Positions 39,655 to 59,177 are shown, counted from the stretch's first letter. The stretch is DNA of 64,000 nt from Candidatus Micrarchaeota archaeon (GCA_021827525.1 JAKAVJ010000013.1:9191-73190), one strand, 5' to 3'. Program-made: numbers and translations. Notes: generated from the sequence alone by a model not told the origin.

Positions 39655-41313
39655 TTATATAAATGTTCTCATTCTGCCGCTCATCTGCGATGCACCGCCT
39701 ATGAACGTCGCTATCTGTGTCACGAACGCATAAGTTACTGCGATTATAAGCAACGGATAGAACAGTATCAGGAGCCAGAAGCTGCTCATTGCCGATTGCA
39801 CAGAGCTTACCTGCGTCACGAGCGGGCTATCAGGCGTTATGGCATTGGTTATCGCACCGGAGCCCTGGCCGAAACGGTTCAACTGAATAGAGGCGGTAGA
39901 GAGGGTGTGCAGTATGCTCGGCGCCGTGAAGTAATAAGCTATTGCGAACATGGTCGGCATTATTATGTAGAACCCCATTGCCAGTGCGATGAGCATGCCG
40001 CCTAGCGCCCTTGTCGGGAATATGGCCCTGAATATCACGCCAGGAACAAGGAATACTGGTATGGATGCAACCGAGAAGAATACTAGCAGGTAGTATTCGG
40101 CGTACAGAGCGGTTATGCCCTCTATTATGAAGGTTCCCAGCACCATAGAGGGCTCTATAACCAGCGCTTCCAGGGGCAGTGAGTACAATAGCGTCAGCAG
40201 TGATATCGGCGGCGCGCCTGTTATTGGAAAGGCTATTTCTACATTTAGCGAGGCGTAGAATGAATCCATGATCACAACATTGTATAGGCTGGAGAACACG
40301 CCTTCAGCCTGCTGTATTGTGGAGAGGATAAGATGGAAAGCGGTAGCGTACGGGTTTATGGTCCCCACAAAAAGCGACGGTATTATGCCGAACGCCACGG
40401 CGCTCACATACAGGAACAGCCCGACGATTATGGCGCTGGCAATTGCTTCATAAAGCTCGCCAATGCCGAAGTTGCGCATCCTGTCGTTCCTTAGGCCTGC
40501 TCCGACCATGAATATTATTGCCGCTATAGAGAATGCGACAAGTATCGCAGCGAAAGCTATGGGCGTCTCGGAGCTCCACGTATCGTAGACCTGCTCGTTT
40601 ATTGGGCAGTACCACGGTGCACTGCTCTCTATCTGCGATACTATCGAATTGGGCAGCAGCCCGCATCCCCCAGGTATTGACGTGGTTGTAGTGCTGACTG
40701 TTGCTGTACCAGAAGCAGAATTAGATGCGCTTTTCGATGCACTGTTCGAAGCGCCGTTGGATGAGCTTGACGCACCGTTAGAAGCACCGGATGCGCTTTT
40801 CGATGCACCGTTCGAAGCGCCGTTGGATGAGCTTGACGCACCGTTAGAAGCGCCGGATGCGCTTTTCGATGCACTGTTCGAAGCGCCGTTGGATGAGCTT
40901 GACGCACCGTTAGAAGCGCCGTTGGATGAGCTTGACGCACCGTTAGAAGAAGACGTCGGTGAGGTTTTTGACCCACATTTTACACCTCTAATTGGTTGAC
41001 CATTCTGAAAGCTGCATATTATATTTACCGACGGGCAGCCCGACGGGCAACCGCCAGAGCAGAGCGTAAGGCTGCCGCATGACACTTCTGTGTTGCATGA
41101 GCATTTTGGCAGGAACGAAAGGCTTTCGGATTGGGGCGCCTGCGCGGCAGTCATGTTAGAATAGGATATGTTAGAGTAAGATATGGAATGCTGTATAGGC
41201 ACGCTTGAGGTGCTACCAGTTTGCGCTGGCTGCATGCTTAGCGAGGCGTATGCGAATACAGTTATCACTGCAAATATCGCAGCGATTACCAATAATGGAA
41301 TTGCTCTGGACAT
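39655..41313 (-). CDS. Polytopic membrane protein, tandem paralogue 6 of 6, with Cys-rich ectodomain and Ser/Asn/Gly/Ala linker
   Basis: Signal-anchor; a 10-Cys segment CSCNTEVSCGSLTLCSGGCPSGCPSVNIICSF..VKC; (SSSNGASNGASKSA)n linker; membrane core with GELYEAIASAIIVGLF and IFRAIFPTRALGGMLIALAMGFYIIMP. Confidence 0.7.
   Translation of the reverse strand: MSRAIPLLVIAAIFAVITVFAYASLSMQPAQTGSTSSVPIQHSISYSNISYSNMTAAQAPQSESLSFLPKCSCNTEVSCGSLTLCSGGCPSGCPSVNIICSFQNGQPIRGVKCGSKTSPTSSSNGASSSSNGASNGASSSSNGASNSASKSASGASNGASSSSNGASNGASKSASGASNGASSSSNGASNSASKSASNSASGTATVSTTTTSIPGGCGLLPNSIVSQIESSAPWYCPINEQVYDTWSSETPIAFAAILVAFSIAAIIFMVGAGLRNDRMRNFGIGELYEAIASAIIVGLFLYVSAVAFGIIPSLFVGTINPYATAFHLILSTIQQAEGVFSSLYNVVIMDSFYASLNVEIAFPITGAPPISLLTLLYSLPLEALVIEPSMVLGTFIIEGITALYAEYYLLVFFSVASIPVFLVPGVIFRAIFPTRALGGMLIALAMGFYIIMPTMFAIAYYFTAPSILHTLSTASIQLNRFGQGSGAITNAITPDSPLVTQVSSVQSAMSSFWLLILFYPLLIIAVTYAFVTQIATFIGGASQMSGRMRTFI
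40724..40948. repeat. In-frame 66-bp tandem repeat (~3.4 units) encoding the Ser-rich linker
   Basis: The unit GATGCGCTTTTCGATGCAC(C/T)GTTCGAAGCGCCGTTGGATGAGCTTGACGCACCGTTAGAAGC(A/G)CCG starts at 40724, 40790 and 40856, followed by a partial unit. Confidence 0.9.
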
Positions 41314-41315
41314 GC

Positions 41316-42416
41316 TTACACCAAGTTACCAATAAGGGCCATGAAGCTGACCTTCTCGCCCATCACCTTTGAAAAGTCCACTATGAATGCGTCTAATATG
41401 GTGAAATTCAGGAAGGGCACGAAAGTGAGGCCCGCTATCACATACCCGTATTGCAGCAGGAGAGTCCCCAGATATGATGGGAAGCTTCCGGATATATATG
41501 TGGCGAACAGTCCTGCTACCAGGCCCGTAGCGCCTGATGCTAAGTTGTATATTCCCGCCAATGCGCCTGAGATTGTAGATGGGTTGCCCAATGAAACTAG
41601 CGTCTGCGTAGTTATGAAGCCATAGGTTACCGAGACCAAAAGGGGGAACACTATTCCGAGGCCCAAGCCGAAAGCTATCATTGCGCCGCCAAAGCTCCTT
41701 GATATGCCGAAGACCCATGCTATCAGACCTATTGCCATGAAAAGGGCTATGAAGAATATTGATCCGGATAGCAGTATCAATTGAACCTCGTTGAGCAGTA
41801 TCATAAACAGCAGCGCATTGAACGCAATGCCTAGAATTTCGTCCATAGATTTCGGGAATAGGCTATTGATGCCAAATGAGAAGCCGGTTCCGTCTGAATC
41901 GAATGGGACATTGACCTTGACGGAGAACCCGGGCGTGAGACCGGCAACGTATGATACGCCGTACAGCAGGCTGAAGTAGCCCTTCGATATCGCTATGAAG
42001 CTGCCCATGTCGCAAGCGGATAGGTTGAATATTGTATCGCTCGCAGCTCCTGTGCATGTGCTCGGAAGCAGATGTGCGCTGCTTACGGACTGGCTCGGAC
42101 TTAAGAACATCATCGAATATAACCCGAGAAATATCACAATCAGCATTATCCCTATGAGTGCCTCGTATATCTGGGCGCGCGCCCAGCTCCTGCCATTAGG
42201 GCTGTCCAAGGCGAAGCTGACTGCATAAATCAGTGCCGCAATCAGTATAACCACAATGACTGCAATCAGAGCTATGTCATACCACGGAGGTATGAAGCTG
42301 GTGACGAATGACTGAGGCGCGGAGGATGCCGCAGAAGCGGTGTGCAGCAGCATCACGGCTAGCATAGCAATCGCGACCGAGACCCGTATTGCACTTCTTG
42401 AAACCATGCCAATCAT
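41316..42416 (-). CDS. Polytopic membrane protein, tandem paralogue 5 of 6
   Basis: Signal peptide. AQIYEALIGIMLIVIF and the degenerate core motif LIAWVFGISRSFGGAMIAFGLGLGIVFP. Confidence 0.7.
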   Translation of the reverse strand: MIGMVSRSAIRVSVAIAMLAVMLLHTASAASSAPQSFVTSFIPPWYDIALIAVIVVILIAALIYAVSFALDSPNGRSWARAQIYEALIGIMLIVIFLGLYSMMFLSPSQSVSSAHLLPSTCTGAASDTIFNLSACDMGSFIAISKGYFSLLYGVSYVAGLTPGFSVKVNVPFDSDGTGFSFGINSLFPKSMDEILGIAFNALLFMILLNEVQLILLSGSIFFIALFMAIGLIAWVFGISRSFGGAMIAFGLGLGIVFPLLVSVTYGFITTQTLVSLGNPSTISGALAGIYNLASGATGLVAGLFATYISGSFPSYLGTLLLQYGYVIAGLTFVPFLNFTILDAFIVDFSKVMGEKVSFMALIGNLV

Positions 42417-42431
42417 CTATCCCTCTTCAGT

Positions 42432-43508
42432 TCACAGCACCCTCTTCAGCGTATTGCTTGAAGACAGGCTCGGCGCTCCGAGCGCGTCGCCTATCAGCTC
42501 CATGAAGTCGTACGAGACTATAAGCGATATTATGAGCACGAATATTGTAAATATCATCGGCTCGACTATGACATTTATAAATGGCGTGATTATATCGAAT
42601 GATATCATTTGAAGTACCGTGGTGAGGAAAGTACCTGTTGATTGTATGAAACTGCTTGGGCTGCTCAGGAACGAATTTGTATTTATTACAGGCAAAACCG
42701 ATGAGGTGGGCGATGCCTGCAGCATGAAGTACAGCAGGGTAGGGAACATGAGGTAGAACGCGATGAAAAGGCCCAGGAAGGCTCCGCCTGCTGCCCTTGT
42801 CCACGGAATCGTACGCAGTATTATTCCCAAGAACAGGAATATCGGGAATACTGAATAGATTATGGCTAGGAAAACTATGAGTGCTATGAAGAGCCCTGCA
42901 AGGCCCCCGGCAATGCCTATGAATAGGTTAAGTATGTGGTACAGAAGGCCGAAGGCCTTAAATGGTACGAAGCTTATGCCGAAATACAGCGGCATTATGT
43001 TCACCCTAAAATCACGCAGAAGCTGGAGGTAGTATGTCTCTGGTATGAAGTAAGTGGAGAGCGACCTGAATACGTCGACCGACGAGCCCGCAAGGAGCGT
43101 GCAGTCGTTGTAATACGTGTTGTATGTGCTTGACGGGCCTATCTTTATGAAACCTGATGGAGATATGGAGTATATTGCGCCGAAAAATATTAGGACTACA
43201 AGCAACGTCACGACTATCTCGCCCATCTCTGCCTTCGAGAACTGCACAAGCTTCTCGACCTTGAATGAATAGCCTATCATATACGTTATGCCTATCACCA
43301 GCGCCACAAGAGCCAGTATGAGCATGGATATGCCGAGCATGCCGCCATAAGAACTCGAATGAAGCACCGCATTGGACTGCACTATTGCGCTGTTGCAGAA
43401 TGCGGAGTTGGTCGCATCCCCTGTGCTAGCAGCAGAGACGTTGCCCAGAAGCAGCAGCAAGGCTAGAACCAGCGCCGCACCCTTTGCATATGCGTATGCC
43501 CTTCTCAT
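42432..43508 (-). CDS. Polytopic membrane protein, tandem paralogue 4 of 6
   Basis: Signal peptide. KAEMGEIVVTLLVVLIF and IILRTIPWTRAAGGAFLGLFIAFYLMFP. Confidence 0.7.
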   Translation of the reverse strand: MRRAYAYAKGAALVLALLLLLGNVSAASTGDATNSAFCNSAIVQSNAVLHSSSYGGMLGISMLILALVALVIGITYMIGYSFKVEKLVQFSKAEMGEIVVTLLVVLIFFGAIYSISPSGFIKIGPSSTYNTYYNDCTLLAGSSVDVFRSLSTYFIPETYYLQLLRDFRVNIMPLYFGISFVPFKAFGLLYHILNLFIGIAGGLAGLFIALIVFLAIIYSVFPIFLFLGIILRTIPWTRAAGGAFLGLFIAFYLMFPTLLYFMLQASPTSSVLPVINTNSFLSSPSSFIQSTGTFLTTVLQMISFDIITPFINVIVEPMIFTIFVLIISLIVSYDFMELIGDALGAPSLSSSNTLKRVL

Positions 43509-43515
43509 AATATCA

Positions 43516-44967
43516 CTATACGAACCTCGAAAGGCCTGCGAGGTTGGTATCGCCTCCGAGCAGGCCGGACAGGCCGATTATTGCAGTCAGTGTTATCAAT
43601 ATGTTCACAAGTGGCAGGACGTATGCGGTTATGCCCGTTATGCCGTATGCATTCAGCACCTGGAACATGGTGCCCTCCGCATTCGTTGGAGTGCATGCAG
43701 AAGGCAGATAGAAGTATGGCAGTGAGCTTGGCAGGCCTCCCGAAGCACCCTTTATTAGGGGCAGCAGGCCTTCTACAGCGGATGCAAAAGGAACCAGCAG
43801 TATGCCGGTATCCTCTGCCTGGGTCAGGGCCAGGTTGCCGCCGGGGGGCCAGCAGTTGTTTGCCTGCGCTATCTTCTTTATGCTTGGCTCCACGAAGAAA
43901 TTAGGGGTATAGTCGGGCAAGGCGGTAATGGAATTTGTAGTTATGCCGTTGAAGCCGTAGGCAGTGCTAAGCGTAATGCCCGTGGAGCCGATCTCGCTGT
44001 TCACGTTCATGCTGCTCAGCGATACATACTCAATTGCGAATACTGCTGGATAGAACAGCACCGCCCCTATGGCAACGGCTATGAAAAGCCCGCCTATCCT
44101 CCTAGTGAAGGGCGTCGCCCTGAATATCAGCCCTATGAACAGGATGTACGGCCATATGTACAGGAATATGATTATGAACAGGAGCTGGGCGACATCCATT
44201 TCAAGCGATGTGCCTAGAAGCTCGCCTATAACGCCCATGGGCTTGTACACCATTGAGTACCCTGCATAGGGTGTGTATGTAGCATTTATGAATGAGATGG
44301 CAGGATTTACGTCTTCTTCTGGAGGTATTATGCATGGCCCGGCGGGATTTATAAAGTCCTGCAGGCAGAATGACAGCGAGGGCGTGAGCGTCTCCATGTA
44401 GCCTAAGAAGAAGTCGACTTCGAAGAACGAATTAAGGTTTACTATGCTCTGGTTCGTAAGGTTTGCGATCACGACCCCTGCGGAAGCCAGCGGGTAGTCT
44501 ATGTTAGTCGTGGCGGTAGGATTGCTGGACTGCGTCGATATGTAGTTGCACAGCCCTCCGAAAGACGGGCCCGAAGAGCTAGAGAATCCTTTGAGCAGCG
44601 AAAACGAGCTTATACCGAAAGAGGGCGGTCCGAGTATGGAGAGCGGTGAATATGATTCTATTCCGCTGCACATGCTTGACATGCTCGATGTTGACATTGC
44701 GCCGCCGCTCGAAATTAGGGAGAATATATTGCCCGCAAACACCAGTATGGTGAGCACTATGACCGTTATGACAGCGGTGCCGGCAAGCTGGTAGAACTCG
44801 CCTCTTGCTGAATCCTTCACCTTCGTGCTGTTAAGCAGTATGCCCAGCACGTACCATACGCTCACTATCACCGAATCGAGGAGCAGCGCAAGCACGACTA
44901 TTGGCAGAAGGTCGGACTTCACAGTAGATATGGATGTTATCTGCAATAATATTCCAGGCGCTATCAT
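43516..44967 (-). CDS. Polytopic membrane protein, tandem paralogue 3 of 6
   Basis: RGEFYQLAGTAVITVIV and LIFRATPFTRRIGGLFIAVAIGAVLFYP. Large central ectodomain. Confidence 0.7.
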   Translation of the reverse strand: MIAPGILLQITSISTVKSDLLPIVVLALLLDSVIVSVWYVLGILLNSTKVKDSARGEFYQLAGTAVITVIVLTILVFAGNIFSLISSGGAMSTSSMSSMCSGIESYSPLSILGPPSFGISSFSLLKGFSSSSGPSFGGLCNYISTQSSNPTATTNIDYPLASAGVVIANLTNQSIVNLNSFFEVDFFLGYMETLTPSLSFCLQDFINPAGPCIIPPEEDVNPAISFINATYTPYAGYSMVYKPMGVIGELLGTSLEMDVAQLLFIIIFLYIWPYILFIGLIFRATPFTRRIGGLFIAVAIGAVLFYPAVFAIEYVSLSSMNVNSEIGSTGITLSTAYGFNGITTNSITALPDYTPNFFVEPSIKKIAQANNCWPPGGNLALTQAEDTGILLVPFASAVEGLLPLIKGASGGLPSSLPYFYLPSACTPTNAEGTMFQVLNAYGITGITAYVLPLVNILITLTAIIGLSGLLGGDTNLAGLSRFV

Positions 44968-44972
44968 TCAAA

Positions 44973-46613
44973 TCACAGATTGTTCCAGAACGACGCAGCA
45001 CCCTCTATTCCAGTATTCAATGCCTTTGTGAGGCTCATGGCGAACGCCACTGTTATGGCTATATTCAATGCAAATAATATAACACCTATGAATATGAACT
45101 GCGACATCAGGTTCACGATAGAGTTAGATATTGTTATAGGCGTATACGGATTGTATACGCCGGAAAGCCCAAGGCTGCTCACGCCTGAGATGAGGCTAAG
45201 CTCTGACGGCGCGGCTATGCCGAATGGAAGCGTCGAAGGCGAGCTGCTTGATGCGCTCGAGAAGAATGTTGATGGCAGCTGTGTCAATGTGAATCCCATG
45301 TTCAGGTACGGATAAAGGGGGTTCTGAACAGAGAATATCCAATGCACCATGTACGCATCGAGCGCTATGGTCAGCGGATATATCAGGTAGAGCGCTATCG
45401 CTAACGCCAAAACGGCGTTGGCTACGTTGCGCAGCCCTGACCCGCCCGCGCCGGTATATGCTATTGACCTTATTATTATGGCCACGGGAAGCAATAATGT
45501 GAATGCGGTAAGCTTTATGAGCGGCAGCGCTAGGTACTGCAGGAATAACATGCCTATGGTTATCACCAGTATCGGCGAGAACAGATCCATGTACAGATCA
45601 GCAATGAGATAATAGCCTATGCTTAGGTCGTACCCCTCCAGAACGTTCATAGATACGCCTGGCGCTATGGTAATCGTCGGTATTTCGAGCTTCCCCGACA
45701 GTTGCGCTGCCATATATGAGTATACTCTTGCATCTATGCTGAACGCTATCGAATCGGAATATATATTCGTGAGAAGCCTCAAGCCTGTGTTCATGCTAAG
45801 GTTGCCGATGTAGTAGTCTGAATACGTAAATGGACCGAGCGATGTGCCTGTAAGCTGCTGGCTTATTGACGAAGATATGCCGCATGCTGCGCTCGAGAAG
45901 AATATGAGCAGCGTTATTATGAGTGCGCTTATCAGGAGCTGCGTCATCTCAATCTTGGTTATGCCGGCGATGGTGCTCTTGGTCCTTGGGGGCATGATCC
46001 TGCCAATGGCATACAGAACTGCCATTACCATGAAGCCGATTATTATCACAAGGTAGTTTATTGGAAGCCAGTCGTTGGTGTAGTCTGAATTTCCGTACAG
46101 GGTGCACGCCTGTATGGGCTGCGATGGCGGCGGAGCCGTGACGGTTATGGCAGAAGCTGAGTTTGTAGATGAGGATGCGCTGTTTGAAGCGCTGTTGGAG
46201 GCGCCGGTGGAGGCGCTGTTGGAAGCAGAATTGGAGGCTGAGTTGGTGGGTGCACCGGGGGTCAGCACGGTCAACACTTGACCACTGCTGTATGTATTTG
46301 TCGATATATCGTAAGCATAAAAGTATTTGTAGGTGCCAGCTTGAAGGCTGCCCGCAGGATATGTATAGGTAGCCGTGCCGAATCCGAAAGCCAGTTCCTG
46401 GTTTTCGGTGGGGTACCTTATTTCGCACAGACGATTGAGTATAGTCTTACCCGGGCATTGGGCTGTTATTGTAACTGTGGATGTTGTGCTTGCTGGATTG
46501 GGGCTTATAGTAAGTGTAGGCGATGCTGCTTTGGCGACTGCCGATGAATGCACTAGCATTATTATCAGTATGAGTGCGTAAATGGGAAACATCCTTGTTT
46601 TTGCGCTTTTCAT
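44973..46613 (-). CDS. Polytopic membrane protein, tandem paralogue 2 of 6, with Ig-like ectodomain and Ser-rich linker
   Basis: Signal peptide; beta-rich N-terminal domain; NSASNSASNSASTGASNSAS linker; KIEMTQLLISALIITLL and IIIRSIAYTGAGGSG...LALAIALYLIYP. Confidence 0.7.
   Translation of the reverse strand: MKSAKTRMFPIYALILIIMLVHSSAVAKAASPTLTISPNPASTTSTVTITAQCPGKTILNRLCEIRYPTENQELAFGFGTATYTYPAGSLQAGTYKYFYAYDISTNTYSSGQVLTVLTPGAPTNSASNSASNSASTGASNSASNSASSSTNSASAITVTAPPPSQPIQACTLYGNSDYTNDWLPINYLVIIIGFMVMAVLYAIGRIMPPRTKSTIAGITKIEMTQLLISALIITLLIFFSSAACGISSSISQQLTGTSLGPFTYSDYYIGNLSMNTGLRLLTNIYSDSIAFSIDARVYSYMAAQLSGKLEIPTITIAPGVSMNVLEGYDLSIGYYLIADLYMDLFSPILVITIGMLFLQYLALPLIKLTAFTLLLPVAIIIRSIAYTGAGGSGLRNVANAVLALAIALYLIYPLTIALDAYMVHWIFSVQNPLYPYLNMGFTLTQLPSTFFSSASSSSPSTLPFGIAAPSELSLISGVSSLGLSGVYNPYTPITISNSIVNLMSQFIFIGVILFALNIAITVAFAMSLTKALNTGIEGAASFWNNL
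46149..46250. repeat. Low-complexity imperfect short repeats encoding (N/T/G)SAS linker
   Basis: Degenerate reiteration of GCGCTGTTGGAGGC-like units on the plus strand, in frame within 44973..46613. Confidence 0.7.
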
Positions 46614-46624
46614 CTAATCGCTCT

Positions 46625-47863
46625 TCATGCAAGTTTCATCCTTCCTATTCCAAGCCTCAGAGAGCCCCCTAGCAGCGACGCTATGTGCTGGACTATGACT
46701 ATGCCTATTATCAGGTCCAGTATGAAAAGTATGAACTGCAGTATCGCCACCAGGAAAGCCTGCGACAGTATTATGTTGAATGCCGGATATATGTCTGCAT
46801 AGCTAGCCATGCCGTATCCGAATCCTGTAAATATCTGGCTATTCGCGTTAGAAGCGTATAGCATGGTGTTGATAACGCTTATCGCCCCGCTGTAGAAGGC
46901 GCATTCTATTGGGTTCCATCCACTAGGGCAGGAATTTGACAGAGTAGGTATGGTTGTGGGCGGGATATAGCTGCTTATTGGAACGTTGATGGCAAGCAGA
47001 AGCGCAGGGTATACTAGCGACGCGCCTATGCCGAGCGCCAAGAAAGTGCCGCCGAGAGGCCTTAGTATTGGAATGGCTCTGAGCACTATCCCTACAGGCA
47101 AGAGGACGCCGAACCCTATTGCTATGATGGACGCCAAAAGGTCTTGCTGCACCTGCAATATTATCGTAACAGGGACTAGGATGACCTTTCCTATATCTGT
47201 AAGCAGAGAGAGGCCAGGGTCCGATATGGAGGATATTACGCTGCTCACATAGAGGTTCTCATCGACACCGAAATCGAGCGATCCTATTGTAAACACCGGC
47301 ACTATAGGGATGGGTATGTATAATGACAGCGTCATACTCTTCCATACGCCTATGCCGTCATATAGGCCGAGTAAATTGTAGAATGCGGTATCTACGTTCT
47401 GCAGCTCCGGGGTAAAGTAGGATGTTTGAAGCGCGGTGTAGACCATGCCTATGTTACTGGTTATTTCGCTGCTTGCTGTGCTGCTGCTAGTTGTCAACGA
47501 TGAGCTCGGCGCGCCGACATAGCTCGCAGCTATGCTGCTTAGCACTATGAACAGCGAAAATATCAAGACTATTATCAGTATGGACTTCACAGCCTCCCTG
47601 AGCTCGTTCTGGTACCATCCTTTCAGCGCGCTTATGTTGAAAACGCTGCCGAGCATGTATGATATAGCAACAAGCAGGAACGAGAACAGAACACCGAATA
47701 ATGCCAATGGTATCGCCGACACTACGCAGTTGCCAAGCGTGGTGTCCGAGCCGGTGACCAGGCAGTATGGAGTTGTCTGAAAGCTAGGGCTCGCGTACAC
47801 AGGCTTTGCTGCGAATGCTAGCAGCAATACGGCAAAAAGCATTACTTTGCTCCCGTGGCGCAT
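46625..47863 (-). CDS. Polytopic membrane protein, tandem paralogue 1 of 6
   Basis: Signal peptide. QNELREAVKSILIIVLIF and IVLRAIPILRPLGGTFLALGIGASLVYP. Confidence 0.7.
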   Translation of the reverse strand: MRHGSKVMLFAVLLLAFAAKPVYASPSFQTTPYCLVTGSDTTLGNCVVSAIPLALFGVLFSFLLVAISYMLGSVFNISALKGWYQNELREAVKSILIIVLIFSLFIVLSSIAASYVGAPSSSLTTSSSTASSEITSNIGMVYTALQTSYFTPELQNVDTAFYNLLGLYDGIGVWKSMTLSLYIPIPIVPVFTIGSLDFGVDENLYVSSVISSISDPGLSLLTDIGKVILVPVTIILQVQQDLLASIIAIGFGVLLPVGIVLRAIPILRPLGGTFLALGIGASLVYPALLLAINVPISSYIPPTTIPTLSNSCPSGWNPIECAFYSGAISVINTMLYASNANSQIFTGFGYGMASYADIYPAFNIILSQAFLVAILQFILFILDLIIGIVIVQHIASLLGGSLRLGIGRMKLA

Positions 47864-47929: not shown

Positions 47930-48661
47930 TCACCTCTTCAGCAGCGCAAACCTCTTCATGTACATCTCGCTCTGCAGCACTACGAGAAACGGCAGTATGA
48001 ACAATGAGTTGAACACGACCATTATATAGCGTGACAGAAGAGTCCCTGTCGCCGCTATGAATATGAAATCAAACAGCGTTATCAGCACTATAGCTATAGC
48101 AAGCCATAGCAGGAAATAGTCGAAGCGCTTTATGATGAATCTCAGGCTTGCCATCATTGCCCTGCCTACGGGCTTCTCGTCTATGACTATGGAGCTGGGC
48201 GCATAGAAGAAGAAAGGAGCGAGTATCAGCGCAGCCGCATATGTGAACAGGCCTGAATGCCCTATTGAGAAAGACGCCATGTTGATCAGGTACAATATTA
48301 CAGCGTAGGCTATGAGCACTGCGAATGTGCTGCCTGTATATCTCTCCAGCCCGTCCATTATCTCCTTGCGTATCCTCGTGTGTATCCTGCCGTATTTCAC
48401 AAGTATGTTTATCGCTACGATAGCAAAGCTCAGGAAAAGCAGCGAGAAGAACACCGATGCCACTATTATCGACGCGCTGATTGCGTTGAGGTTGACGAAT
48501 ATGCTTGCAGTCCTTATGAATATCGCGCCGGCATCATTGTATGTTGGGAGCGGCGCGAGGCCAGGTATTATAAAAGCTATGAGGAATGATATCGAGAAAA
48601 GCAGTATCAGACGAAGGTGCTTCGCATAGAAGTCAAACGAATAGCTTAGCACGTTCACCAT
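47930..48661 (-). CDS. Six-TM integral membrane protein (cluster-associated, no recognised family)
   Basis: 243 aa, evenly spaced hydrophobic helices, basic C-terminus. Confidence 0.6.
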   Translation of the reverse strand: MVNVLSYSFDFYAKHLRLILLFSISFLIAFIIPGLAPLPTYNDAGAIFIRTASIFVNLNAISASIIVASVFFSLLFLSFAIVAINILVKYGRIHTRIRKEIMDGLERYTGSTFAVLIAYAVILYLINMASFSIGHSGLFTYAAALILAPFFFYAPSSIVIDEKPVGRAMMASLRFIIKRFDYFLLWLAIAIVLITLFDFIFIAATGTLLSRYIMVVFNSLFILPFLVVLQSEMYMKRFALLKR

Positions 48662-48698: not shown

Positions 48699-48722
48699 GG
48701 TTAATGGAAAAACCCATTAACC
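48699..48722 (-). terminator. 9-bp perfect stem-loop 3 nt after the stop of the pilin-like gene (possible attenuator or partial terminator)
   Basis: GGTTAATGG-AAAAAC-CCATTAACC. On the minus strand it is followed by CTTTTAATATTT. Confidence 0.45.
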
Positions 48723-48725: not shown

Positions 48726-49115
48726 TTAGGAGCAGGCTGCGGTTATGCTGGCCACGGAAGCCGAGCTTCCCATTATCAGGCCGAGCAGGAACGGCGCTAT
48801 CTCTGCTATTATCACGCCTATGACCCCTCCCAGGATCATGCCCATGCCGTATCCCTGAAGCGTCGACTTGCTCTGGCCGGGCATAATGTGCGAAGCTGCA
48901 TAGAGCGCCGCGCCGCCTATCATCAGTGCAAGTCCCAGTATGAATATTGCCGTGTGCACTACGGTGTATATTATGCATATCTGCGAAGTCACAGTGCTTA
49001 CTATGCTGTTCCCTGCCGCTGACATCGTCGCTATGAAGCTAAGCATCAGAAGAGGCAGCATCAGCACCTTAATGTTACGGCTTAACCAATCCAAAAGACC
49101 GAATATTTTTGGCAT
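48726..49115 (-). CDS. Small two-helix membrane protein with long leader; VirB2/TrbC/CedA1-like pilin candidate
   Basis: 129 aa. Leader ending ...SFIATMSAAG, then helix ICIIYTVVHTAIFILGLALMIGGAALYAA, polar loop SHIMPGQSKSTLQGYG, and helix MGMILGGVIGVIIAEIAPFLLGLIMG. First gene of the cluster. Confidence 0.6.
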   Translation of the reverse strand: MPKIFGLLDWLSRNIKVLMLPLLMLSFIATMSAAGNSIVSTVTSQICIIYTVVHTAIFILGLALMIGGAALYAASHIMPGQSKSTLQGYGMGMILGGVIGVIIAEIAPFLLGLIMGSSASVASITAACS

Positions 49116-49143: not shown

Positions 49144-49153
49144 TTTATATATA
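49144..49153. promoter_or_regulatory. TATA-like box TTTATATATA in the divergent intergenic region
   Basis: Centred about 34 nt upstream of the 49115 start codon on the minus strand, implying a short or absent leader. It could also serve the plus-strand gene at 49226. Confidence 0.4.
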
Positions 49154-51222: not shown

Positions 51223-52929
51223 ATGTATGTATTGGGAGTATGGGACCAGCACGATGCCGGCGCGGCGCTCATAGACGATAAAAAGGTAGTATTCGCAGCA
51301 AACGAAGAGAGGTTCACCAAGCGGAAGCTGGAGATGAAGTTCCCGGTGCATTCAATACATGCGGCGCTCAACTTTGCTGGGCTGAAGCCCGGAGACATAG
51401 AGCACATAGCAGTGAGCACCACCGAGCTCACCAAGACGCTCGAGAGGCTGATGCCCTATTCGAGGGAATACTATTACAATTTCAGAAGGAGGAAGATACC
51501 TAAGCCTATGTTCGAGAACTTCAGGCACAACCTCAAGTATTCCATGACAGGCGTGGGCATATTGCCTGGCACAACAGCGCTGAGCAAGTACCTCCTTGCC
51601 AGGGAGCTGAGGCACATGGGCTTCAGGAAGTTCAAACTCCACGTAGTTGAACACCATGTAGCGCACGCGGCCTCTGCCGCGTTCACATCAGGACTCAGGA
51701 AGTCGCTCGTAATAACTCTTGATGGATTGGGCGATGGGCTGTCAGGATCAATAAGCGTATTTGAGAACGGGAATCTGGAGAGGCGCTTGCGCATACCGGC
51801 CAGGGATTCACTAGGGATCTTCTTCGAACAGGTCACAAACATAGTAGGCATGAGAGAGCTTGAGGACGAGGGCAAGGTGATGGCTATGGCCGATTACTCA
51901 TACCCGTTCGACATCGAGGAGAACAGGATGAAGGACTTCTTCAAGATAGAAGGCACAAACATAATGGCCAAGTACAGCCCTGTCAAGCAGTTCAGCGTGC
52001 TGCAGAAGATTGCGTGGTCGCTGCCAAGGGAGCAATTCGCATACATGGCGCAGCAGCTTCTTGAAGCCGCTATGCTGAAGTTTGTCGGCAACGCCATAAG
52101 CAGGTACAATATAGGAGATGTCGTGATGGCGGGCGGCACTTTCTCCAACGTCAAGGCGAACATGATGCTCAGGGGGATCGATGCCCTCAAGCATTGGTAC
52201 ATATTCCCACATATGGGGGATGGTGGAATTGCCCTAGGTTCGGCGATGTACGTCGGGCACATGCTTGCAGGAACCACATCGTATTCATTCAGCCCGTACC
52301 TTGGCAACATGTATACTGACGAAGAGACAGCCAGGGTGCTGAAGGGCGAGAGGCAGTTTGCAGTGCAGGAGGAAGGCCAGACCGAGCAGGCATCGCATGC
52401 TGCAGAGCTGATAGATAAGGGCAATTACGTATTCTGGTTTCATGACAGGATGGAGTACGGCCCCAGGGCGCTCGGCAACAGGAGCATATTGGCGCCCACA
52501 GGCTCTGACGAAGTGAAGGACAAGCTCAATATGTACGTCAAGAAACGCGAATGGTTCCAGCCGTTCGCGCCTTCGATCCTCGAGGAGGATGCAGCAAGAG
52601 TGCTCGAATATGATGGCAAGGGCGCCGACAAGTTCATGACGATGGCGTACATGGTCAAGAAGGATATGCAAGGGCTGACAAAAGCGGTCATGCACATAGA
52701 CGGGTCGGCGAGGCCGCAGATGGTAGGAGAGGAGAATCCGCTTTATTACAGGCTTCTTAAGGGGGTGAAGAACAGGTCAGGTGTAGGAATGGTGCTTAAC
52801 ACAAGCTTCAACATACATGGCATGCCGATAGTGCTGAGCCCCTATGATGCGGCCGAGACCATGAAGAAGACCAGAACGAAGTACATGTTCATAAACGGCT
52901 TTTTCGTTACCAACAAGGCTGGTGTGTGA
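51223..52929 (+). CDS. Carbamoyltransferase, NodU/CmcH family
   Basis: N-terminal ILG..DQHDAGAALIDD...ANEERFTKRK and VVEHHVAHAASAAF, characteristic of NodU/CmcH O-carbamoyltransferases. Confidence 0.85.
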   Translation: MYVLGVWDQHDAGAALIDDKKVVFAANEERFTKRKLEMKFPVHSIHAALNFAGLKPGDIEHIAVSTTELTKTLERLMPYSREYYYNFRRRKIPKPMFENFRHNLKYSMTGVGILPGTTALSKYLLARELRHMGFRKFKLHVVEHHVAHAASAAFTSGLRKSLVITLDGLGDGLSGSISVFENGNLERRLRIPARDSLGIFFEQVTNIVGMRELEDEGKVMAMADYSYPFDIEENRMKDFFKIEGTNIMAKYSPVKQFSVLQKIAWSLPREQFAYMAQQLLEAAMLKFVGNAISRYNIGDVVMAGGTFSNVKANMMLRGIDALKHWYIFPHMGDGGIALGSAMYVGHMLAGTTSYSFSPYLGNMYTDEETARVLKGERQFAVQEEGQTEQASHAAELIDKGNYVFWFHDRMEYGPRALGNRSILAPTGSDEVKDKLNMYVKKREWFQPFAPSILEEDAARVLEYDGKGADKFMTMAYMVKKDMQGLTKAVMHIDGSARPQMVGEENPLYYRLLKGVKNRSGVGMVLNTSFNIHGMPIVLSPYDAAETMKKTRTKYMFINGFFVTNKAGV

Positions 52930-54674
52930 TGTTCGGTGCAGGCGTCGAGGAATACATATTAACGCTCGGGGTCATTGTCTCATTCATAGGCTTCCTTTTC
53001 TTTGCCGCAAGAAGCAGGAGAGATATATCGCAGGCGTTGAAAAGTTCGGGCATAGACGGCAGGATGCTGCTGGCGGCGGCCGCAGTGGTTCTCCTGTTCC
53101 TAGCCCTTGAAATTTCTCTCGTGAAGCCGACGCAGCAGCTCTTCTTTGATGACGTGCTGTACCAGGGTGGGGCGCTTGACCTGCTTCACACAGGCCAGGC
53201 ATGGCAATGCAACTTCGGCTCGCCTACGCAGTGCTTCACCGGGCTGGTGTTCCATGAACCAATCGGCACGTCATTCAACATAGCAATCGCGTTCGCAGTT
53301 GCGGGCGTGCACCAGTACTCGGCGTACGGCATGTTCCTTTTCCTCAGCGCCCTCTCCGTGCTGCTCGTCTTCCTCATATCGATGCTCATATTCAGGGAGT
53401 TCTTATACAGCATATTCGCCGAGCTCATGTTTTCATTGAGCCCGGTTCTGCTTGTCTGGGCGCTGCCTACAACCTCAGACCTCACCATGCTCACCTATTC
53501 TCTCATCGCGGTTTTCGCGGCGGCGCTGTTCACATACAGGAAAAATCTTAACACGTTCGGCATGCTCATGTTCTCCATACCTTTATTGATGTACATGAAG
53601 GTCGATGCTGCAATATTCCTGGTTCTCATACCCCTGATGTATATAATGCTGGATGATGAATCGCTGTCAAAATCGTTGCGCAACAACATAAGGCGCATAC
53701 AAGAGAATATATTCAACACCAGGGTGCTGATCGTTGTGCTGTTTTTTGTAATAGCAGTTTCTGCGGAGTTCATGTACACAGCTGGAGAATACAGAGTTGG
53801 GACATATCGCTACAATAATACTGTCATACCGAACACCTGCGCACCTGCTAGCCCGGCGTATGTGAATGTGACGCAAAACATCGACTTCCAGAATTTCGAG
53901 GCTAACGTCTGCGCCAACACGCTTTTCTGGTTCGATGCATTCCAGGGAGGCAATGGATCCTACCATATAATGCAGCCCGTGTTCTTTACGTTCCTTGCGG
54001 CAATAGGCGCAATCGCTATGCTAGCTTACCGCAGGAAGCAGGCGATTTCGCTCCTGATATGGTTCTTCGTCTTCTTCGCCATTTACACGTCGTTCTATGC
54101 CGGCGCGGTGACATACGGAGTGGACTGGAGGTTCGTGCTGAGCATGATAACACAGGTTAGCATGTTTGGTGGGTTCGGTGCCGGTGCCATTATACTGGCT
54201 TCGAGAAGATGGGCTGGAATGAGGGGCTTTGCTCTCTCCCTGGCAGTAGTGGCGCTGCTTATTGCGTATTCGTTCTACACCATGGCGCCGAGCTTAGGCA
54301 TTAACCCATCCTCCATACCGCAGGCCCAGCAGGCGCGGTTCTACCAGAATTTCGTATATGGCAATGCGAAATCGATACCCGCATCATGCCTGGTTTTCAG
54401 CTTCGACCCCGAGCTCTTCAACCTGAATAACAGGAGCGCTATACAGTTCGGCAACATAACGAGCGCTTATACCCAGTCAGGCCTTGCCGCCTACCATGAC
54501 AAGTATCCGTGCCTGGTGGTCGATTACGGCTATTGGTGCTATACCTCCGGGTTCGAGGGGCTTTGCCACACGGTAAGCAGCACCTTCAACCTGACACAAA
54601 TAGCAACGGCCAGAGACAACTACTCCGGCTTTGCATATGCCTACGGCTTCTACAGGATAGATGGCTTGAAATAG
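52926..54674 (+). CDS. Polytopic membrane protein, GT-C-type (PMT/ArnT-like) glycosyltransferase candidate
   Basis: First loop FFDDVLYQGGALDLLHTGQ. More than 10 TM helices. Its start overlaps the carbamoyltransferase stop (GTGATG). Confidence 0.45.
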   Translation: MMFGAGVEEYILTLGVIVSFIGFLFFAARSRRDISQALKSSGIDGRMLLAAAAVVLLFLALEISLVKPTQQLFFDDVLYQGGALDLLHTGQAWQCNFGSPTQCFTGLVFHEPIGTSFNIAIAFAVAGVHQYSAYGMFLFLSALSVLLVFLISMLIFREFLYSIFAELMFSLSPVLLVWALPTTSDLTMLTYSLIAVFAAALFTYRKNLNTFGMLMFSIPLLMYMKVDAAIFLVLIPLMYIMLDDESLSKSLRNNIRRIQENIFNTRVLIVVLFFVIAVSAEFMYTAGEYRVGTYRYNNTVIPNTCAPASPAYVNVTQNIDFQNFEANVCANTLFWFDAFQGGNGSYHIMQPVFFTFLAAIGAIAMLAYRRKQAISLLIWFFVFFAIYTSFYAGAVTYGVDWRFVLSMITQVSMFGGFGAGAIILASRRWAGMRGFALSLAVVALLIAYSFYTMAPSLGINPSSIPQAQQARFYQNFVYGNAKSIPASCLVFSFDPELFNLNNRSAIQFGNITSAYTQSGLAAYHDKYPCLVVDYGYWCYTSGFEGLCHTVSSTFNLTQIATARDNYSGFAYAYGFYRIDGLK

Positions 54675-54683: not shown

Positions 54684-55364
54684 TCAGCCTATGTTCCTGA
54701 GTATCGTCCTCAATATCCTGAAGCCGTCCCTTACGGTATGCAGCTTGGCTTCGCCGTTCTCCCGCCGCTTCTCGTAGCTCGGCACCTCCAATGTCTTGAG
54801 ACCGCTCTTCTTCGCTTTTATGTTTATCTCTGTCTCTATTCCGAAGCCCTTCTCCTTTAGGTCCAGCTTTCTCAGGGCTTTCCTCGAAAAGCTCCTGTAG
54901 CCGTAGCACAGGTCAGTGTATCTTGTGCCGTAGAGCAGGTTCACTATGTGCACGAACGCCTTGTTGCCCAACACGCGCAGCTTCGGCATGTCTTCCGACC
55001 CTCCTCCGGTAAGGAACCTTGACCCAAGGCATACATCGTATCCGGATTCTATGCCTGTTACCAGAAGCGGTATCTCCTTAGGCTTGTTTGACAGGTCTGC
55101 ATCCATGGATATTATTATATCGCCCTTTGCTGCATGCATTCCCCTCACCAGCGCTGAGCCCTTGCCATAATCGTCGTACATGATTTTCGCGCCCATCGAT
55201 CTAGCTATGCGCACCGTCCTGTCCTTTGAATGCCCGTCAACGACTATTATCTCGTAGCTGTACCTGCTGAGCTCACCCTTAAGCTTGCGCATCAGCTCCG
55301 CTATGTTCTTCTCCTCGTTGAGTGTCGGTATCACTATGCTCACATGCGGTTTCAAAGTACGCAC
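54684..55364 (-). CDS. Family-2 glycosyltransferase, dolichyl-phosphate sugar synthase (Dpm1-like)
   Basis: VSIVIPTLNEE, IIVVDGHSKDRT, ISMDADLS. Confidence 0.8.
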   Translation of the reverse strand: MRTLKPHVSIVIPTLNEEKNIAELMRKLKGELSRYSYEIIVVDGHSKDRTVRIARSMGAKIMYDDYGKGSALVRGMHAAKGDIIISMDADLSNKPKEIPLLVTGIESGYDVCLGSRFLTGGGSEDMPKLRVLGNKAFVHIVNLLYGTRYTDLCYGYRSFSRKALRKLDLKEKGFGIETEINIKAKKSGLKTLEVPSYEKRRENGEAKLHTVRDGFRILRTILRNIG

Positions 55365-55522: not shown

Positions 55523-56584
55523 ATGTCTGTAGAGAGGATGATGGGCTTGGGCATGACCGCCCTCGAATCCAATTTCCGCACGCTCAGGAAGCCCTATAAG
55601 CTAAATTTTGCAGTGACATATTGGTGCCAGTCGCGCTGCCTCACGTGCAATATATGGCAGATGAAGCCAAAGGGAGAGCTCAATATCGACGAGATACGCA
55701 GTTTCGCGGGCAAGAACCCGTACTTCAAATGGATAGAGCTAACAGGTGGAGAGGTATTCATGCGCAGCGACCTTGTCGAGATTGCCAAGGCCTTCAGCGA
55801 AAGCTCGAAGCATCTCTACATACTGACAATGCCTACTAATTCCCTGTCCAACCATGACTTGATGTTCAGGGAGCTTGAGGAGATACTCGCCCTCGGCATA
55901 CCGAGGGTAGCGATAACTGTCAGCCTTGACGGCTATAGGGAACTGCATGACAGGATACGCGGCGTGCCGGGCAACTACGACAAGGCAATAGACACATTCA
56001 GGAGGCTGCAGGAAATGAAGAAGGAGCACAGCAACCTGTATTTCGTTTTCGGGTACACAATGAGCAAGTTCAACCAGGGCGAATTCGCCAAGACGTTCGA
56101 AGCCGTCAAGCGCGACATACCCTCGGTAAGCTATAACGATTTCCATATCAATCTGGGCCAGATATCTGATAATTACTACGGCAATTCCAATCTTGATATA
56201 AAGCCGAACGATTCGAAAGTTCTTGAGGAGCTAGGGTCGATAATCAGGAGCAGAAAGAAGGAATACGGGGCCATATCGCTAATAGAATCTGCCTTCCTTA
56301 GGAAGCTTGTGGAATACGCGAGGACGGGTAAGACGCCTATGAGGAGCAAGAGCCTCGAAGCGTCGCTGTTCCTTGACAGCTATGGCAATGTCTACCCCTC
56401 GATAATGTGGAACAGGAAGATAGGCAATATACGCGATACGAGATACAGCCTCGAGGCTATGTGGAACAGCAGCGACGCGAAGGAGGTAAGGAGGCTCATA
56501 CGCGAAGGCAAAGAGCCGAGCCAGTGGACATCCTGCGAGGCGTACCAGAGCATAATAGGCAGGATACCCAGCCTGCTCATCTGA
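55523..56584 (+). CDS. Radical SAM enzyme
   Basis: CQSRCLTCNIW (CxxxCxxC) near the N-terminus, followed by GGEVFMR. Confidence 0.8.
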   Translation: MSVERMMGLGMTALESNFRTLRKPYKLNFAVTYWCQSRCLTCNIWQMKPKGELNIDEIRSFAGKNPYFKWIELTGGEVFMRSDLVEIAKAFSESSKHLYILTMPTNSLSNHDLMFRELEEILALGIPRVAITVSLDGYRELHDRIRGVPGNYDKAIDTFRRLQEMKKEHSNLYFVFGYTMSKFNQGEFAKTFEAVKRDIPSVSYNDFHINLGQISDNYYGNSNLDIKPNDSKVLEELGSIIRSRKKEYGAISLIESAFLRKLVEYARTGKTPMRSKSLEASLFLDSYGNVYPSIMWNRKIGNIRDTRYSLEAMWNSSDAKEVRRLIREGKEPSQWTSCEAYQSIIGRIPSLLI

Positions 56585-57617: not shown

Positions 57618-59177
57618 TCATTTCCCTATTGAGCTGAGTATATTGTAGCTCGAGCAAAACATGTCCGAATAGGAGGTGCCGCGGAGATGGAAGAAGTTGT
57701 AGACGCCTGACTGGAAGTAGTTTATGGCGCTTATGTTGTGACTGCCAGTCGCGCTGCACTGCGACTCGTTAGTAAGGTCCACCTGCTTGAACAGCTCATA
57801 CCTTAGCGTGACCGCCGTGCCATTGGTGTAGTACGGTATCGAGAAGTAGTTGACCACAAAAGTATGGTTCTCCGATATCACTGTGCCTGTGTGCAGAGTT
57901 ATGCCGTTGTTGAACAGGATTGCACTCGATCTCAGCACTTTGCTATACGCTATATTGGGCGCGCCGGTCTCGGGCTCGCGGGTATAATTGACAATCACGT
58001 ATGTGAGGTTGCTCGTGTTCTTAGAGGACCCCAAGGAAAACGCGTAATCCGCACCTATGATACTCAGCTCGGTCACGTTCTGCCTGGAATTCGTCAGTAT
58101 GGATAGCACACCCTCGCCCAGCGCCGCATAGTTTACCGTTGTGCTGCTGTTGAACGTGTATGCAGAGGGGCTTATATACCCAGAATATGGAAGGGTGATT
58201 GCAAATGCAATTACACCGAATGCAAAGGCGAATGACGCCGGAACTGCATATGCACTTGCAGCGATGCGATTTGGAGAAGGCTTGCTCCTGTGAGATGCCC
58301 TGTGTTCATTTCTCTGTGCTTTTGGGATCTGCAGGCCGAACTTGTACGCTATGAGCATCATGATTATTATGGTCGCATAGAATATTATCTGCCCTATGAA
58401 CAGGTGGACCGTGGATATGGCAGTGCCTATCCCATAGAAAGCCCACACAAGTGCTATTGAAAACATCCTCAATATATTGAGAACAAACATCAGCGCTATG
58501 CCGCTTACCACCCATAGCGCCTTCCAGCCGGGCTTGCCATCGTAGAGGTAGGCTAGCGGAAGCAGGAACATGAACAGCGCTATGAATGCCCCTATGTCTG
58601 CGCAAGTAGATGCTATGGATATGGTCCCTGTTGAAGCACCTATTATCTTAATCCCGTCCTGGACTACTGACACTCCTGCGAGGCGCAGCGTGTTGAACAC
58701 AACGCCCGCATTGAGCATTGTGAACGATGCGTCCAGGTTTGTTACAGGCATGAGAAGCAGCGGCGAAGCAAATAGTATATAGAAAAGCAGGAACTTCATC
58801 CTCTTCAGACCAGGAGTACCGAATACCGCGAGGATTATGGCGGCGAGAACGAATATGAACAGGAATGCATCGACCCTGTAGCTCATGAAGATGAAAGACA
58901 GAGCGACCTTGGAATATGAAAGCAGTATTATATAGGCTACGAACACAGCAGAGGCTATGGCGAGGTCGGCCCTCCTGAGAGTTACCTGGAGCTTGTCGTC
59001 CTTCATGTAGAATATTATAAACAGAAGCGACATCAGCATTACTACTATCACGTAGGTCATGGGATTGGTGTCGGAAACCTGGAACTGTGTTATGGACAGG
59101 GAGTTGGCGATAGCGATGACAAACGCTGCCAAAACTATGAGCAGCCCTAGCAGTCTAATCTTACTCTTCTGCAACAT
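57618..59177 (-). CDS. Exosortase/archaeosortase-family transpeptidase-like membrane protein with ~210-aa extracellular C-terminal domain
   Basis: LRLAGVSVVQDG...ISIASTCADIGAFIAL (Cys), VLNILRMFSIAL (Arg) and TVHLFIGQIIFY (His), in the order and spacing of the exosortase Cys-Arg-His triad. About 8 TM helices. Confidence 0.6.
   Translation of the reverse strand: MLQKSKIRLLGLLIVLAAFVIAIANSLSITQFQVSDTNPMTYVIVVMLMSLLFIIFYMKDDKLQVTLRRADLAIASAVFVAYIILLSYSKVALSFIFMSYRVDAFLFIFVLAAIILAVFGTPGLKRMKFLLFYILFASPLLLMPVTNLDASFTMLNAGVVFNTLRLAGVSVVQDGIKIIGASTGTISIASTCADIGAFIALFMFLLPLAYLYDGKPGWKALWVVSGIALMFVLNILRMFSIALVWAFYGIGTAISTVHLFIGQIIFYATIIIMMLIAYKFGLQIPKAQRNEHRASHRSKPSPNRIAASAYAVPASFAFAFGVIAFAITLPYSGYISPSAYTFNSSTTVNYAALGEGVLSILTNSRQNVTELSIIGADYAFSLGSSKNTSNLTYVIVNYTREPETGAPNIAYSKVLRSSAILFNNGITLHTGTVISENHTFVVNYFSIPYYTNGTAVTLRYELFKQVDLTNESQCSATGSHNISAINYFQSGVYNFFHLRGTSYSDMFCSSYNILSSIGK

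Follow-up and report, generated by a model that had tools for sequence, protein, structure and literature searches.

A divergent VirB2/TrbC-like protein linked to a VirB4-like ATPase in a conserved chromosomal locus of Micrarchaeota

The DNA considered here is a stretch of 64,000 nucleotides from a Candidatus Micrarchaeota archaeon (GCA_021827525.1, JAKAVJ010000013.1:9191-73190), referred to below as the window, in whose coordinates all positions are given. It carries, on the minus strand, a cluster of 15 co-directional genes that runs from 49115 down to 32372, and whose first member encodes a protein of 129 amino acids that a first-pass annotation, working from the sequence alone, had likened by its architecture to the conjugative pilins of the VirB2, TrbC and CedA1 type. 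The question raised by this locus is whether such a protein is related to the pilins of type IV secretion systems (T4SSs) and, if this is the case, to what kind of machinery it belongs in an archaeon.

At the level of its family, the protein is homologous to VirB2/TrbC; it has a two-helix architecture, its gene is linked to that of a VirB4-like ATPase, and the locus that holds both is conserved on the chromosome. The explanation favoured here, at somewhat better than even probability, is that the protein is a divergent member of the VirB2/TrbC superfamily and acts as the major structural subunit of a machine that derives from a T4SS and is fixed in the chromosome; as far as the searches made show, this machine is found only in Micrarchaeota.

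Similarity to VirB2/TrbC pilins

Homologues of the protein (54 at E <= 0.01 in a 90%-clustered database) range from 98% to approximately 45% identity and share 17 invariant columns, and in a library of 1.84 billion protein representatives the family comprises 304 clusters at E <= 1e-3. The nearest homologue, at 98% identity, is labelled 'Candidatus Micrarchaeia archaeon'. Because of these homologues and their invariant columns, and because both the start site and the gene order are kept in other genomes, the reading frame is, on this evidence, a real gene and not a chance one. Scanning one genome per GTDB species located 60 loci, nearly all of which are labelled Micrarchaeota or Marsarchaeota, and which include those of the cultivated Ca. 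Micrarchaeum A_DKE (NZ_CP060530.1, complement 823179-823565) and of a Mancarchaeum metagenome-assembled genome (MAG). In two contigs labelled 'Acidiferrales bacterium' (L028) and 'Methanothrix sp.' (L029), the pilin gene is likewise present, together with genes that lie downstream of it in the Micrarchaeota cluster; these labels probably reflect binning contamination of the MAGs in question.

The relationship to pilins emerges when the family, rather than the single protein, is compared with curated profiles. In a Pfam scan of 57 diverse members, plus 42 close ones, TrbC/VirB2 (PF04956) was by far the commonest match, followed by T4SS_pilin (PF18895). At E <= 1e-3 these were the only two families matched (13 and 2 of the 57 diverse members, respectively), and at E <= 0.1 the corresponding counts rose to 23 and 17, every other family being matched at most twice. 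One homologue, P0023, which is 66% identical to the query protein across 70% of its length, reached 29.8 bits against PF04956, above the gathering cut-off of 27.9, and covered profile positions 7-96 of 98. Reversal of the same 57 sequences dropped the TrbC matches to 0/57 and left a single T4SS_pilin match at E = 0.005, with none below 1e-3; the loss of the TrbC signal in this control speaks against an artefact of hydrophobic composition. In addition, alignment of the diverse family by hhalign with six VirB2 sequences, taken from annotated genes of alpha-proteobacterial conjugative plasmids, paired the last helix of one with the last helix of the other at E 5e-4 and a probability of 30%, as compared to E 0.14 for a VirB3 control; this weak match is confined to that helix. 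Judged by such profiles, the family is specifically similar to TrbC/VirB2 and to T4SS_pilin. Membership of the protein in the TrbC/VirB2 family is reached transitively, by way of its homologues, and not by a direct match of its own.

Several results weigh against the favoured explanation. The query protein itself has no TrbC or T4SS_pilin match at E <= 0.1 in Pfam, where its sole match is Ycf66_N (0.035), and NCBIfam likewise yields no pilin; the hhalign comparison of the close-family alignment with the six VirB2 sequences is not significant, and a tblastn search of 72,556 PLSDB plasmids with the best Pfam-matching homologue found nothing. Sequence searches of the PDB at E <= 10, with the protein and with the family profile, returned two chance hits and no pilin. 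The structural comparison that had been proposed as a check, a Foldseek search of the PDB with models of the full-length protein (in which the leader is fused into one long helix) and of its mature part, gave no match below E = 0.4 and no conjugative pilin in the top 50; its best matches are generic hydrophobic hairpins, the top ones from the membrane hairpins of pore-forming toxins, the two-helix fold being too simple for Foldseek to discriminate. Among the proteins of the cluster, VirB3, VirB8, VirD4 and a relaxase were not recognised, and six paralogous membrane proteins described below carry no VirB6/TrbL signal (PF04610 in 0/62 family members). Finally, no filament has been attributed to Micrarchaeota cells, and the nanotubes seen in the ARM-1 co-culture were assigned to the host (PMC11329633). 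The initial comparison with VirB2/TrbC is thus upheld by the family-level Pfam matches and by the linkage to an ATPase, and does not extend to a pilin match of the query in Pfam or in PDB sequence searches, while the likeness to CedA1 and TedC finds no echo at the sequence level, the two chance hits being the only PDB chains that either protein or family profile matched.

These negative results evoke the possibility that the protein is an unrelated, Micrarchaeota-specific hairpin or anchor with two transmembrane (TM) segments, that its pilin matches merely reflect hydrophobic composition, and that the ATPase cluster is unconnected with T4SSs. The missing direct match of the query, the generic hairpins returned by Foldseek, the lack of T4SS signatures in the other cluster proteins and the many functions of HerA-clade ATPases would all agree with such a view. 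It is nevertheless unlikely, in light of the fall from 23/57 TrbC matches to 0/57 upon reversal, of the fact that at E <= 1e-3 no other family was matched, membrane families included, and of the passage of P0023 over a curated cut-off along the full profile length; moreover, it is the VirB4-type matches that span the longest part of the ATPase (approximately residues 38-370, versus 210-390 for HerA, CedB and CedD).

Architecture and expression signals of the pilin-like gene

The gene, its predicted parts and the signals that surround it are as follows.

48726-49115, minus strand: pilin-like open reading frame (ORF), first gene of the cluster, with an ATG start, 129 amino acids and a stop codon at 48726-48728
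49014-49115, minus strand: predicted Sec-type leader, residues 1-34, from hydropathy and the aligned A-x-A sites of homologues
48885-49007, minus strand: predicted helix alpha-1, residues 37-77, from AlphaFold2 model m2d302f991bd7 and the alignment
48870-48884, minus strand: loop M78-P79-G80-Q81-S82, followed by K83, from the alignment and the AlphaFold2 model
48771-48869, minus strand: predicted helix alpha-2, residues 83-115, Gly-rich (GYGMGMILGGVIGVIIA), from the AlphaFold2 model
48729-48770, minus strand: C-terminal tail, rich in Ser and Ala and with Cys128 as the penultimate residue, from the alignment
49144-49153, minus strand: TATA-like box TATATATAAA, 29-38 nucleotides upstream of the ATG, read from the sequence and of putative function
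48699-48722, minus strand: terminator-like hairpin with a 10-bp stem, then CTTTTAATAT, beginning 4 nucleotides past the stop codon (z = -3.07)

Kyte-Doolittle windows delimit three hydrophobic segments, at approximately residues 16-33 (the core of the leader), 46-72 and 88-114, with a polar trough at 70-93, while the AlphaFold2 model of the mature part, based on a 23-sequence alignment and with a predicted local distance difference test (pLDDT) score of 79, places two helices at 37-77 and 83-115 and a five-residue loop between them. The leader displays a basic n-region (K3, R13 and K16) ahead of its hydrophobic core, VLMLPLLMLSFIA. Since the alignment of homologues sets the cleavage site at S-A-A|G, for which aligned relatives have ASA|Q, VSA|Q or AMA|D, the leader would count approximately 34 residues and the mature protein approximately 95, with signal peptidase I as the predicted processing enzyme. 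The first-pass annotation had outlined much the same protein: its ORF of 129 amino acids at 48726-49115 is confirmed, with the addition of the minus strand, which it had left unstated, and so are the leader of about 35 residues ending in IATMSAAG (residues 28-35), the mature part of about 95 residues with two hydrophobic helices and a short polar, basic loop (the quoted string SHIMPGQSKSTLQGYG corresponds to residues 75-90, and the loop proper to MPGQS, then K83), and the Ser/Ala-rich tail, GSSASVASITAACS. It was also right in seeing no class III (prepilin) signal: no such motif was found, the small-residue cleavage motif being located after, and not before, the hydrophobic core, and both this order and the all-helical hairpin set the protein apart from archaeal type IV pilins.

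Within helix alpha-1 lie the conserved Cys47 and the invariant residues F58, L64, G68, Y72 and A73, and the best-conserved stretch of the whole family is formed by the loop and the start of helix alpha-2 (HIMPGQSKG.LQGYGMGM). The MPGQS loop is predicted to face the cytoplasm while the protein sits in the membrane, because of the positive-inside rule and of the even number of TM segments per unit in proteins that carry tandem modules. Every one of the 99 sequences checked (42/42 close and 57/57 diverse members) has a pair of Cys residues equivalent to Cys47 and Cys128, the second of them terminal or close to the C-terminus, and this strict co-conservation suggests a Cys47-Cys128 disulfide, which would join both ends of the hairpin.

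The module also occurs in other arrangements. Some family members (P0055, P0056, P0057 and P0094) are polyproteins of 4-7 tandem pilin modules, each with its own Cys pair and conserved loop, and in P0056 a region of approximately 240 residues precedes the four modules; in approximately 30% of the top 150 representatives, a single module is found at the C-terminal end of a protein of 200-1200 residues. Such tandem and C-terminal modules would fit a unit that is inserted and assembled repeatedly. In locus L003, two near-identical pilin genes lie in tandem, at 9424-9813 and 10001-10390.

The position of the gene at the head of the cluster, as originally described, is borne out by an upstream neighbour that is divergently transcribed and by the TATA-like box, whose distance of 29-38 nucleotides from the ATG implies that the 5' leader of the transcript would be very short or absent. 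Past the stop codon, hairpins or T-tracts are common at the same site in other loci (z < -2 in 19/58), and the combination of first position and of a hairpin or T-tract after the stop codon may be regarded as the signature of a major subunit.

The main rival to a subunit of an extended structure is that of a VirB2-related protein which does not leave the membrane and instead contributes, in stoichiometric amounts, to a translocation channel driven by the ATPase, similar to the role of VirB2 in a channel, with no extracellular pilus. This is a serious possibility of clearly lower probability, and the readings of spurious similarity and of an integrated conjugative element are much less likely. 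A channel subunit would draw on the same homology and linkage evidence as a pilin; packing within a membrane complex would suit both the Gly-zipper helix, which is conserved, and the highly conserved loop on the cytoplasmic side, the module is fused in tandem or C-terminally in large proteins, where it is possibly a mere anchor, and no Micrarchaeota-derived filament has been reported (PMC8975820, PMC11329633). What such a subunit does not readily account for is the first-gene position with a terminator of its own, which suggests a large excess, as for polymer subunits, nor the tandem duplication of the pilin gene in some genomes, and it is difficult to see why a protein confined to the membrane should have a Cys pair on the outside.

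A conserved chromosomal gene cluster

That the pilin-like gene and the ATPase module belong together is most strongly indicated by their direct adjacency in short-form loci. In locus L047 (9917-18238), the pilin gene is followed by two genes for 277-residue proteins, by the ATPase gene, and then by four distal genes, the 243-residue protein gene and the six paralogues of the window's cluster being absent from that site. By tblastn, the same pilin-277-277-ATPase order is also present in L032, and in L024, a short contig, the pilin gene has the two 277-residue genes downstream of it.

Furthermore, the whole 15-gene order is kept in genomes whose pilins are only 43-55% identical, and there the cluster is flanked by carbamoyltransferase/glycosylation genes on one side and by the gene for topoisomerase VI subunit B on the other. 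The same genes lie downstream of the pilin gene in 48/60 loci, and the order of the four distal genes is conserved in L071, L072 and L047. In the window, a topoisomerase VI subunit B gene adjoins the cluster and an archaeal RNase P RNA is present, both of which mark the DNA as archaeal. The GC content of the cluster resembles that of its surroundings, and Pfam and NCBIfam scans of the cluster proteins and of some neighbours saw no integrase, relaxase or VirD4. Because of this synteny, of the lack of an integrase, relaxase or VirD4 among the cluster proteins, and of the unremarkable GC content, the locus, as judged from its sequence and context, is fixed in the chromosome and does not represent a mobile element.

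The presence of VirB2-like and VirB4-like genes in one cluster could also have pointed to the mating-pair-formation module of an integrated conjugative element, with the protein as a true conjugative pilin that transfers this element, and archaeal conjugative plasmids are known in which only VirB4 and VirD4 are recognisable (PMC12857230). Such an origin is highly improbable: the same housekeeping flanks recur at the 43-55% pilin identity mentioned above, approximately 60 species-level genomes carry the cluster, nearly all of them under the label Micrarchaeota, the scans of its genes showed neither an integrase nor a relaxase or VirD4, and its GC content is like that of the surroundings. The mobile-element reading was discarded on the grounds of the synteny between housekeeping genes. 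The term 'conjugative', employed initially for this protein, is doubtful for a locus that is chromosomal and syntenic and among whose genes no relaxase, coupling protein or integrase was seen.

Downstream of the pilin-like gene, the cluster comprises the following genes.

47930-48661, minus strand: 243-residue polytopic membrane protein, always next after the pilin gene in long-form loci, with no family match above cut-off
39655-47863, minus strand: six paralogous polytopic membrane proteins (412, 546, 483, 358, 366 and 552 residues)
37927-39593, minus strand: two 277-residue proteins, paralogous to each other (hhalign probability 93.7%), in both of which a pair of N-terminal TM helices is followed by a cytoplasmic domain
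36408-37922, minus strand: 504-residue P-loop ATPase without TM segments, a member of the VirB4/CedB/HerA clade
32372-36415, minus strand: four distal genes, for proteins of 102, 136, 243 (coiled coil) and 803 residues

The ATPase matches the Pfam families DUF87/HerA-central (2.9e-15), AAA_10 (6e-13) and TraG P-loop (5e-11). Its NCBIfam matches are to CedD, CedB, VirB4-like proteins (the mycoplasma integrative conjugative element and CD1110 families) and TraC, all of them under the family cut-offs; the best scores, 70 bits for CedD and 64 bits for CedB, compare with cut-offs of 600-700 bits and concern the C-terminal half only. The VirB4-type matches (VirB4-like, CD1110-family and TraC) are the longest, as noted above, those to CedD, CedB and HerA in NCBIfam being limited to approximately residues 210-375, and in the PDB the C-terminal domain of VirB4 (4ag5) is matched over residues 57-326, whereas HerA proteins are matched by the C-terminal half only. 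Helix-hairpin-helix or winged helix-turn-helix DNA-binding domains, considered for the C-terminus of the ATPase and for the 102-residue protein, gave no significant matches.

Immediately upstream of the ATPase gene sit those of the two 277-residue proteins; these were considered as a split N-terminal domain of VirB4, to which no similarity was detected. Directly downstream of the ATPase gene and of the 102-residue gene, the 136-residue protein (35697-36107, minus strand) has a zinc ribbon (CxxC…CxxC) at its N-terminus and TM helices at its C-terminus, and the 803-residue protein has an N-terminal TM segment, a large, sequon-rich ectodomain, a second TM segment and a cytoplasmic tail.

The six polytopic paralogues display 23-25% mutual identity and share the motif FPIFL..GI.LR.IP.TR..GG.F; their named homologues come only from MAGs labelled Micrarchaeota or Marsarchaeota, all without annotation. 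They are the natural candidates for a platform of the VirB6/CedA kind, but the idea that they could represent VirB6 was rejected, hhalign giving E 0.29-0.4, with no TrbL/VirB6 Pfam match in 62 members and no PDB match. The segment FPIFLY.GIVLRTIPWTRAAGGAF of the paralogues lines up with GPIFIA..LFE.TR….W of VirB6 (hhalign E 0.29, not significant), and this resemblance around 'PIF…TR' is the sole hint of a VirB6 relationship. At their N-termini, a succession of leader, Cys, TM, loop and TM aligns with the pilin profile by hhalign at E 0.0027 (101 columns) and 4e-4 (27 columns), with a probability of 11-35%, which is not significant and only suggestive of pilin-like N-termini, as for CedA/CedA1; Beltran et al. 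(PMC9905601) noted a relationship of CedA to CedA1 and of VirB6 to VirB2, of which this weak likeness is reminiscent. Two of the paralogue genes (39655-41313 and 44973-46613) encode Ser/Asn/Gly/Ala low-complexity repeats (SNGASSSSNGASNGAS…) behind Cys-rich N-terminal domains, and these repeats, at approximately 40640-41000 and 46100-46280, look like glycosylated stalks.

Proposed assembly and comparison with known systems

A sequence of events can be proposed for a major subunit of the favoured kind. Its own TATA-box promoter and a partial, attenuating terminator would place the subunit in excess over the rest of the machine. Sec would insert the precursor, from which signal peptidase I would remove the leader by cleavage behind Ala34, and the resulting 95-residue product would form a helical hairpin in the membrane, with both ends outside and the MPGQSK loop in the cytoplasm. 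The Cys47-Cys128 disulfide would then tie the open ends of the hairpin, as a counterpart of the head-to-tail cyclisation of TrbC-type pilins. More speculatively, and by analogy with the VirB4-driven dislocation of VirB2, the VirB4-like ATPase and the two membrane-anchored 277-residue partners might extract subunits from the membrane, and the polytopic paralogues might provide a platform on which, again by analogy, these are assembled into a lipid-containing tube or channel. It may further be speculated that this structure reaches a Thermoplasmatales host, where it would serve for contact and/or for the uptake of DNA or other host material, and not for plasmid conjugation. In short, a tube or channel directed at the host cell may be what the cluster builds, both the formation of a filament and its cargo being hypothetical.

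The bacterial TrbC/VirB2 proteins (PF04956), such as VirB2 of A. tumefaciens and TrbC of RP4, resemble the Micrarchaeota protein in the long Sec leader, whose A-x-A cleavage site is often followed by Gln, in a mature part of approximately 70-95 residues that consists of two hydrophobic helices joined by a short, basic loop, in a position at the head of an operon that holds a VirB4-type ATPase, and in the family-level similarity of their hidden Markov models. The differences are nonetheless considerable: the similarity is seen only by profiles, and for part of the Micrarchaeota family, whose members have a conserved Cys pair and belong to archaeal cells with a single membrane and an S-layer; in addition, the Micrarchaeota locus is chromosomal and vertically conserved, and contains no recognisable VirB1, B3, B5, B6, B8-B11 or VirD4.

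A second point of comparison is provided by Ced and Ted, domesticated archaeal T4SSs for DNA import whose pilins are CedA1 and TedC (PMC9905601, PMC11868833). These systems, in Sulfolobales/Aeropyrum and Thermoproteales respectively, are also archaeal, chromosomal and devoid of a relaxase, and associate a helix-loop-helix pilin with a VirB4/CedB-like ATPase and one or more polytopic membrane partners; TedC has a signal-peptidase-I-type leader, like the Micrarchaeota protein, and CedD and CedB provide the best NCBIfam scores of the Micrarchaeota ATPase. In contrast, the Micrarchaeota pilin matches no PDB chain beyond the two chance hits, on the assumption that Ced/Ted pilus entries are in the PDB copy searched, its partners in the membrane form a new family of six paralogues, with no recognisable CedA, TedA or VirB6, and its ATPase has neither the TM segment nor the N-terminal domain found in CedB and CedD. 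Micrarchaeota are, moreover, obligate episymbionts, and the cargo may not be DNA for repair.

A third point of comparison is offered by Patescibacteria (the candidate phyla radiation), in which epibiotic growth requires chromosomal T4SS loci that lack a relaxase and contain arrays of VirB2-like pilins (PMC12102498, PMC12857230). Here too, the organisms are ultra-small episymbionts with a reduced genome and a chromosomal locus that lacks a relaxase, the pilins are recognised by the same two Pfam models, PF18895 and PF04956, and pilin modules are multiplied, as arrays in Patescibacteria and as tandem genes and tandem-module proteins in Micrarchaeota. The patescibacterial systems, which belong to another domain of life, differ by keeping recognisable VirB3, VirB6 and VirB8, often with VirD4, and by their mating-pair-formation type, FATA, whereas only the pilin and the ATPase are recognisable in Micrarchaeota; genetic evidence of essentiality exists for the former only. 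The Micrarchaeota system is a recognisable core of pilin and ATPase whose remaining components are novel.

From these comparisons a broader hypothesis can be formulated, albeit a tentative one that is rather less probable than the identification of the subunit itself. Micrarchaeota, and perhaps other DPANN archaea, would possess a vertically inherited, heavily remodelled T4SS in which a disulfide-stapled, VirB2-like pilin forms the conduit for docking to a Thermoplasmatales host and for taking up DNA or lipids, as a counterpart of the patescibacterial system, with the six paralogues and the 277-residue pair in place of VirB6, VirB3 and VirB8.

A divergent VirB2-family pilin within a domesticated T4SS-like system is not described in the literature searched. 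Full-text searches yielded no paper that ties Micrarchaeota to VirB2, VirB4 or a T4SS, two papers on Micrarchaeota make no mention of VirB, pili or secretion systems, and the portion of the A_DKE annotation table that lies ahead of the pilin locus has no TrbC, VirB or PF04956 entry. Contacts between DPANN archaea and their hosts have been visualised by cryo-electron tomography as filaments and nanotubes, for which no component was identified (PMC8975820, PMC11329633), and a VirB2-like subunit with a VirB4-like motor represents a concrete candidate for such a connecting apparatus. This question can be directly tested, since a homologue is present in the cultivated Ca. Micrarchaeum A_DKE. If the favoured explanation is true, T4SS-derived machines would extend to a third archaeal lineage; the likeness to the essential, chromosomal and relaxase-less patescibacterial T4SS suggests that both groups, by convergence or in common, employ conjugation-type pili in symbiosis, and the conserved Cys pair suggests a disulfide-based alternative for joining the ends of a pilin.

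Beyond the cluster, the window contains a group of glycosylation-type neighbours: a carbamoyltransferase (51223-52929), a PMT_2-like protein (52926-54674), a family 2 glycosyltransferase (54684-55364), assigned by synteny with a 226-residue Glycos_transf_2 gene in L001, and a radical SAM/SPASM protein (55523-56584). Farther along, on the minus strand at 57618-59177, a 519-residue polytopic protein matches the exosortase/archaeosortase family (Pfam Exosortase_EpsH, 6.6e-24), which implies that some surface proteins of the organism undergo sortase-type processing. On the plus strand, at 61043-61519, an ORF of 158 residues with no Pfam match at E <= 0.01 has an N-terminus that resembles an archaeal class III (type IV pilin) signal, …RGCKSQSSLELLITLSFGLIILLPIVV; if this signal is real, the organism would have a type IV pilin in addition to the VirB2-like protein. 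Lastly, the GC content of positions 8001-12000 is 0.39-0.41, as compared to 0.45-0.53 in the rest of the window.

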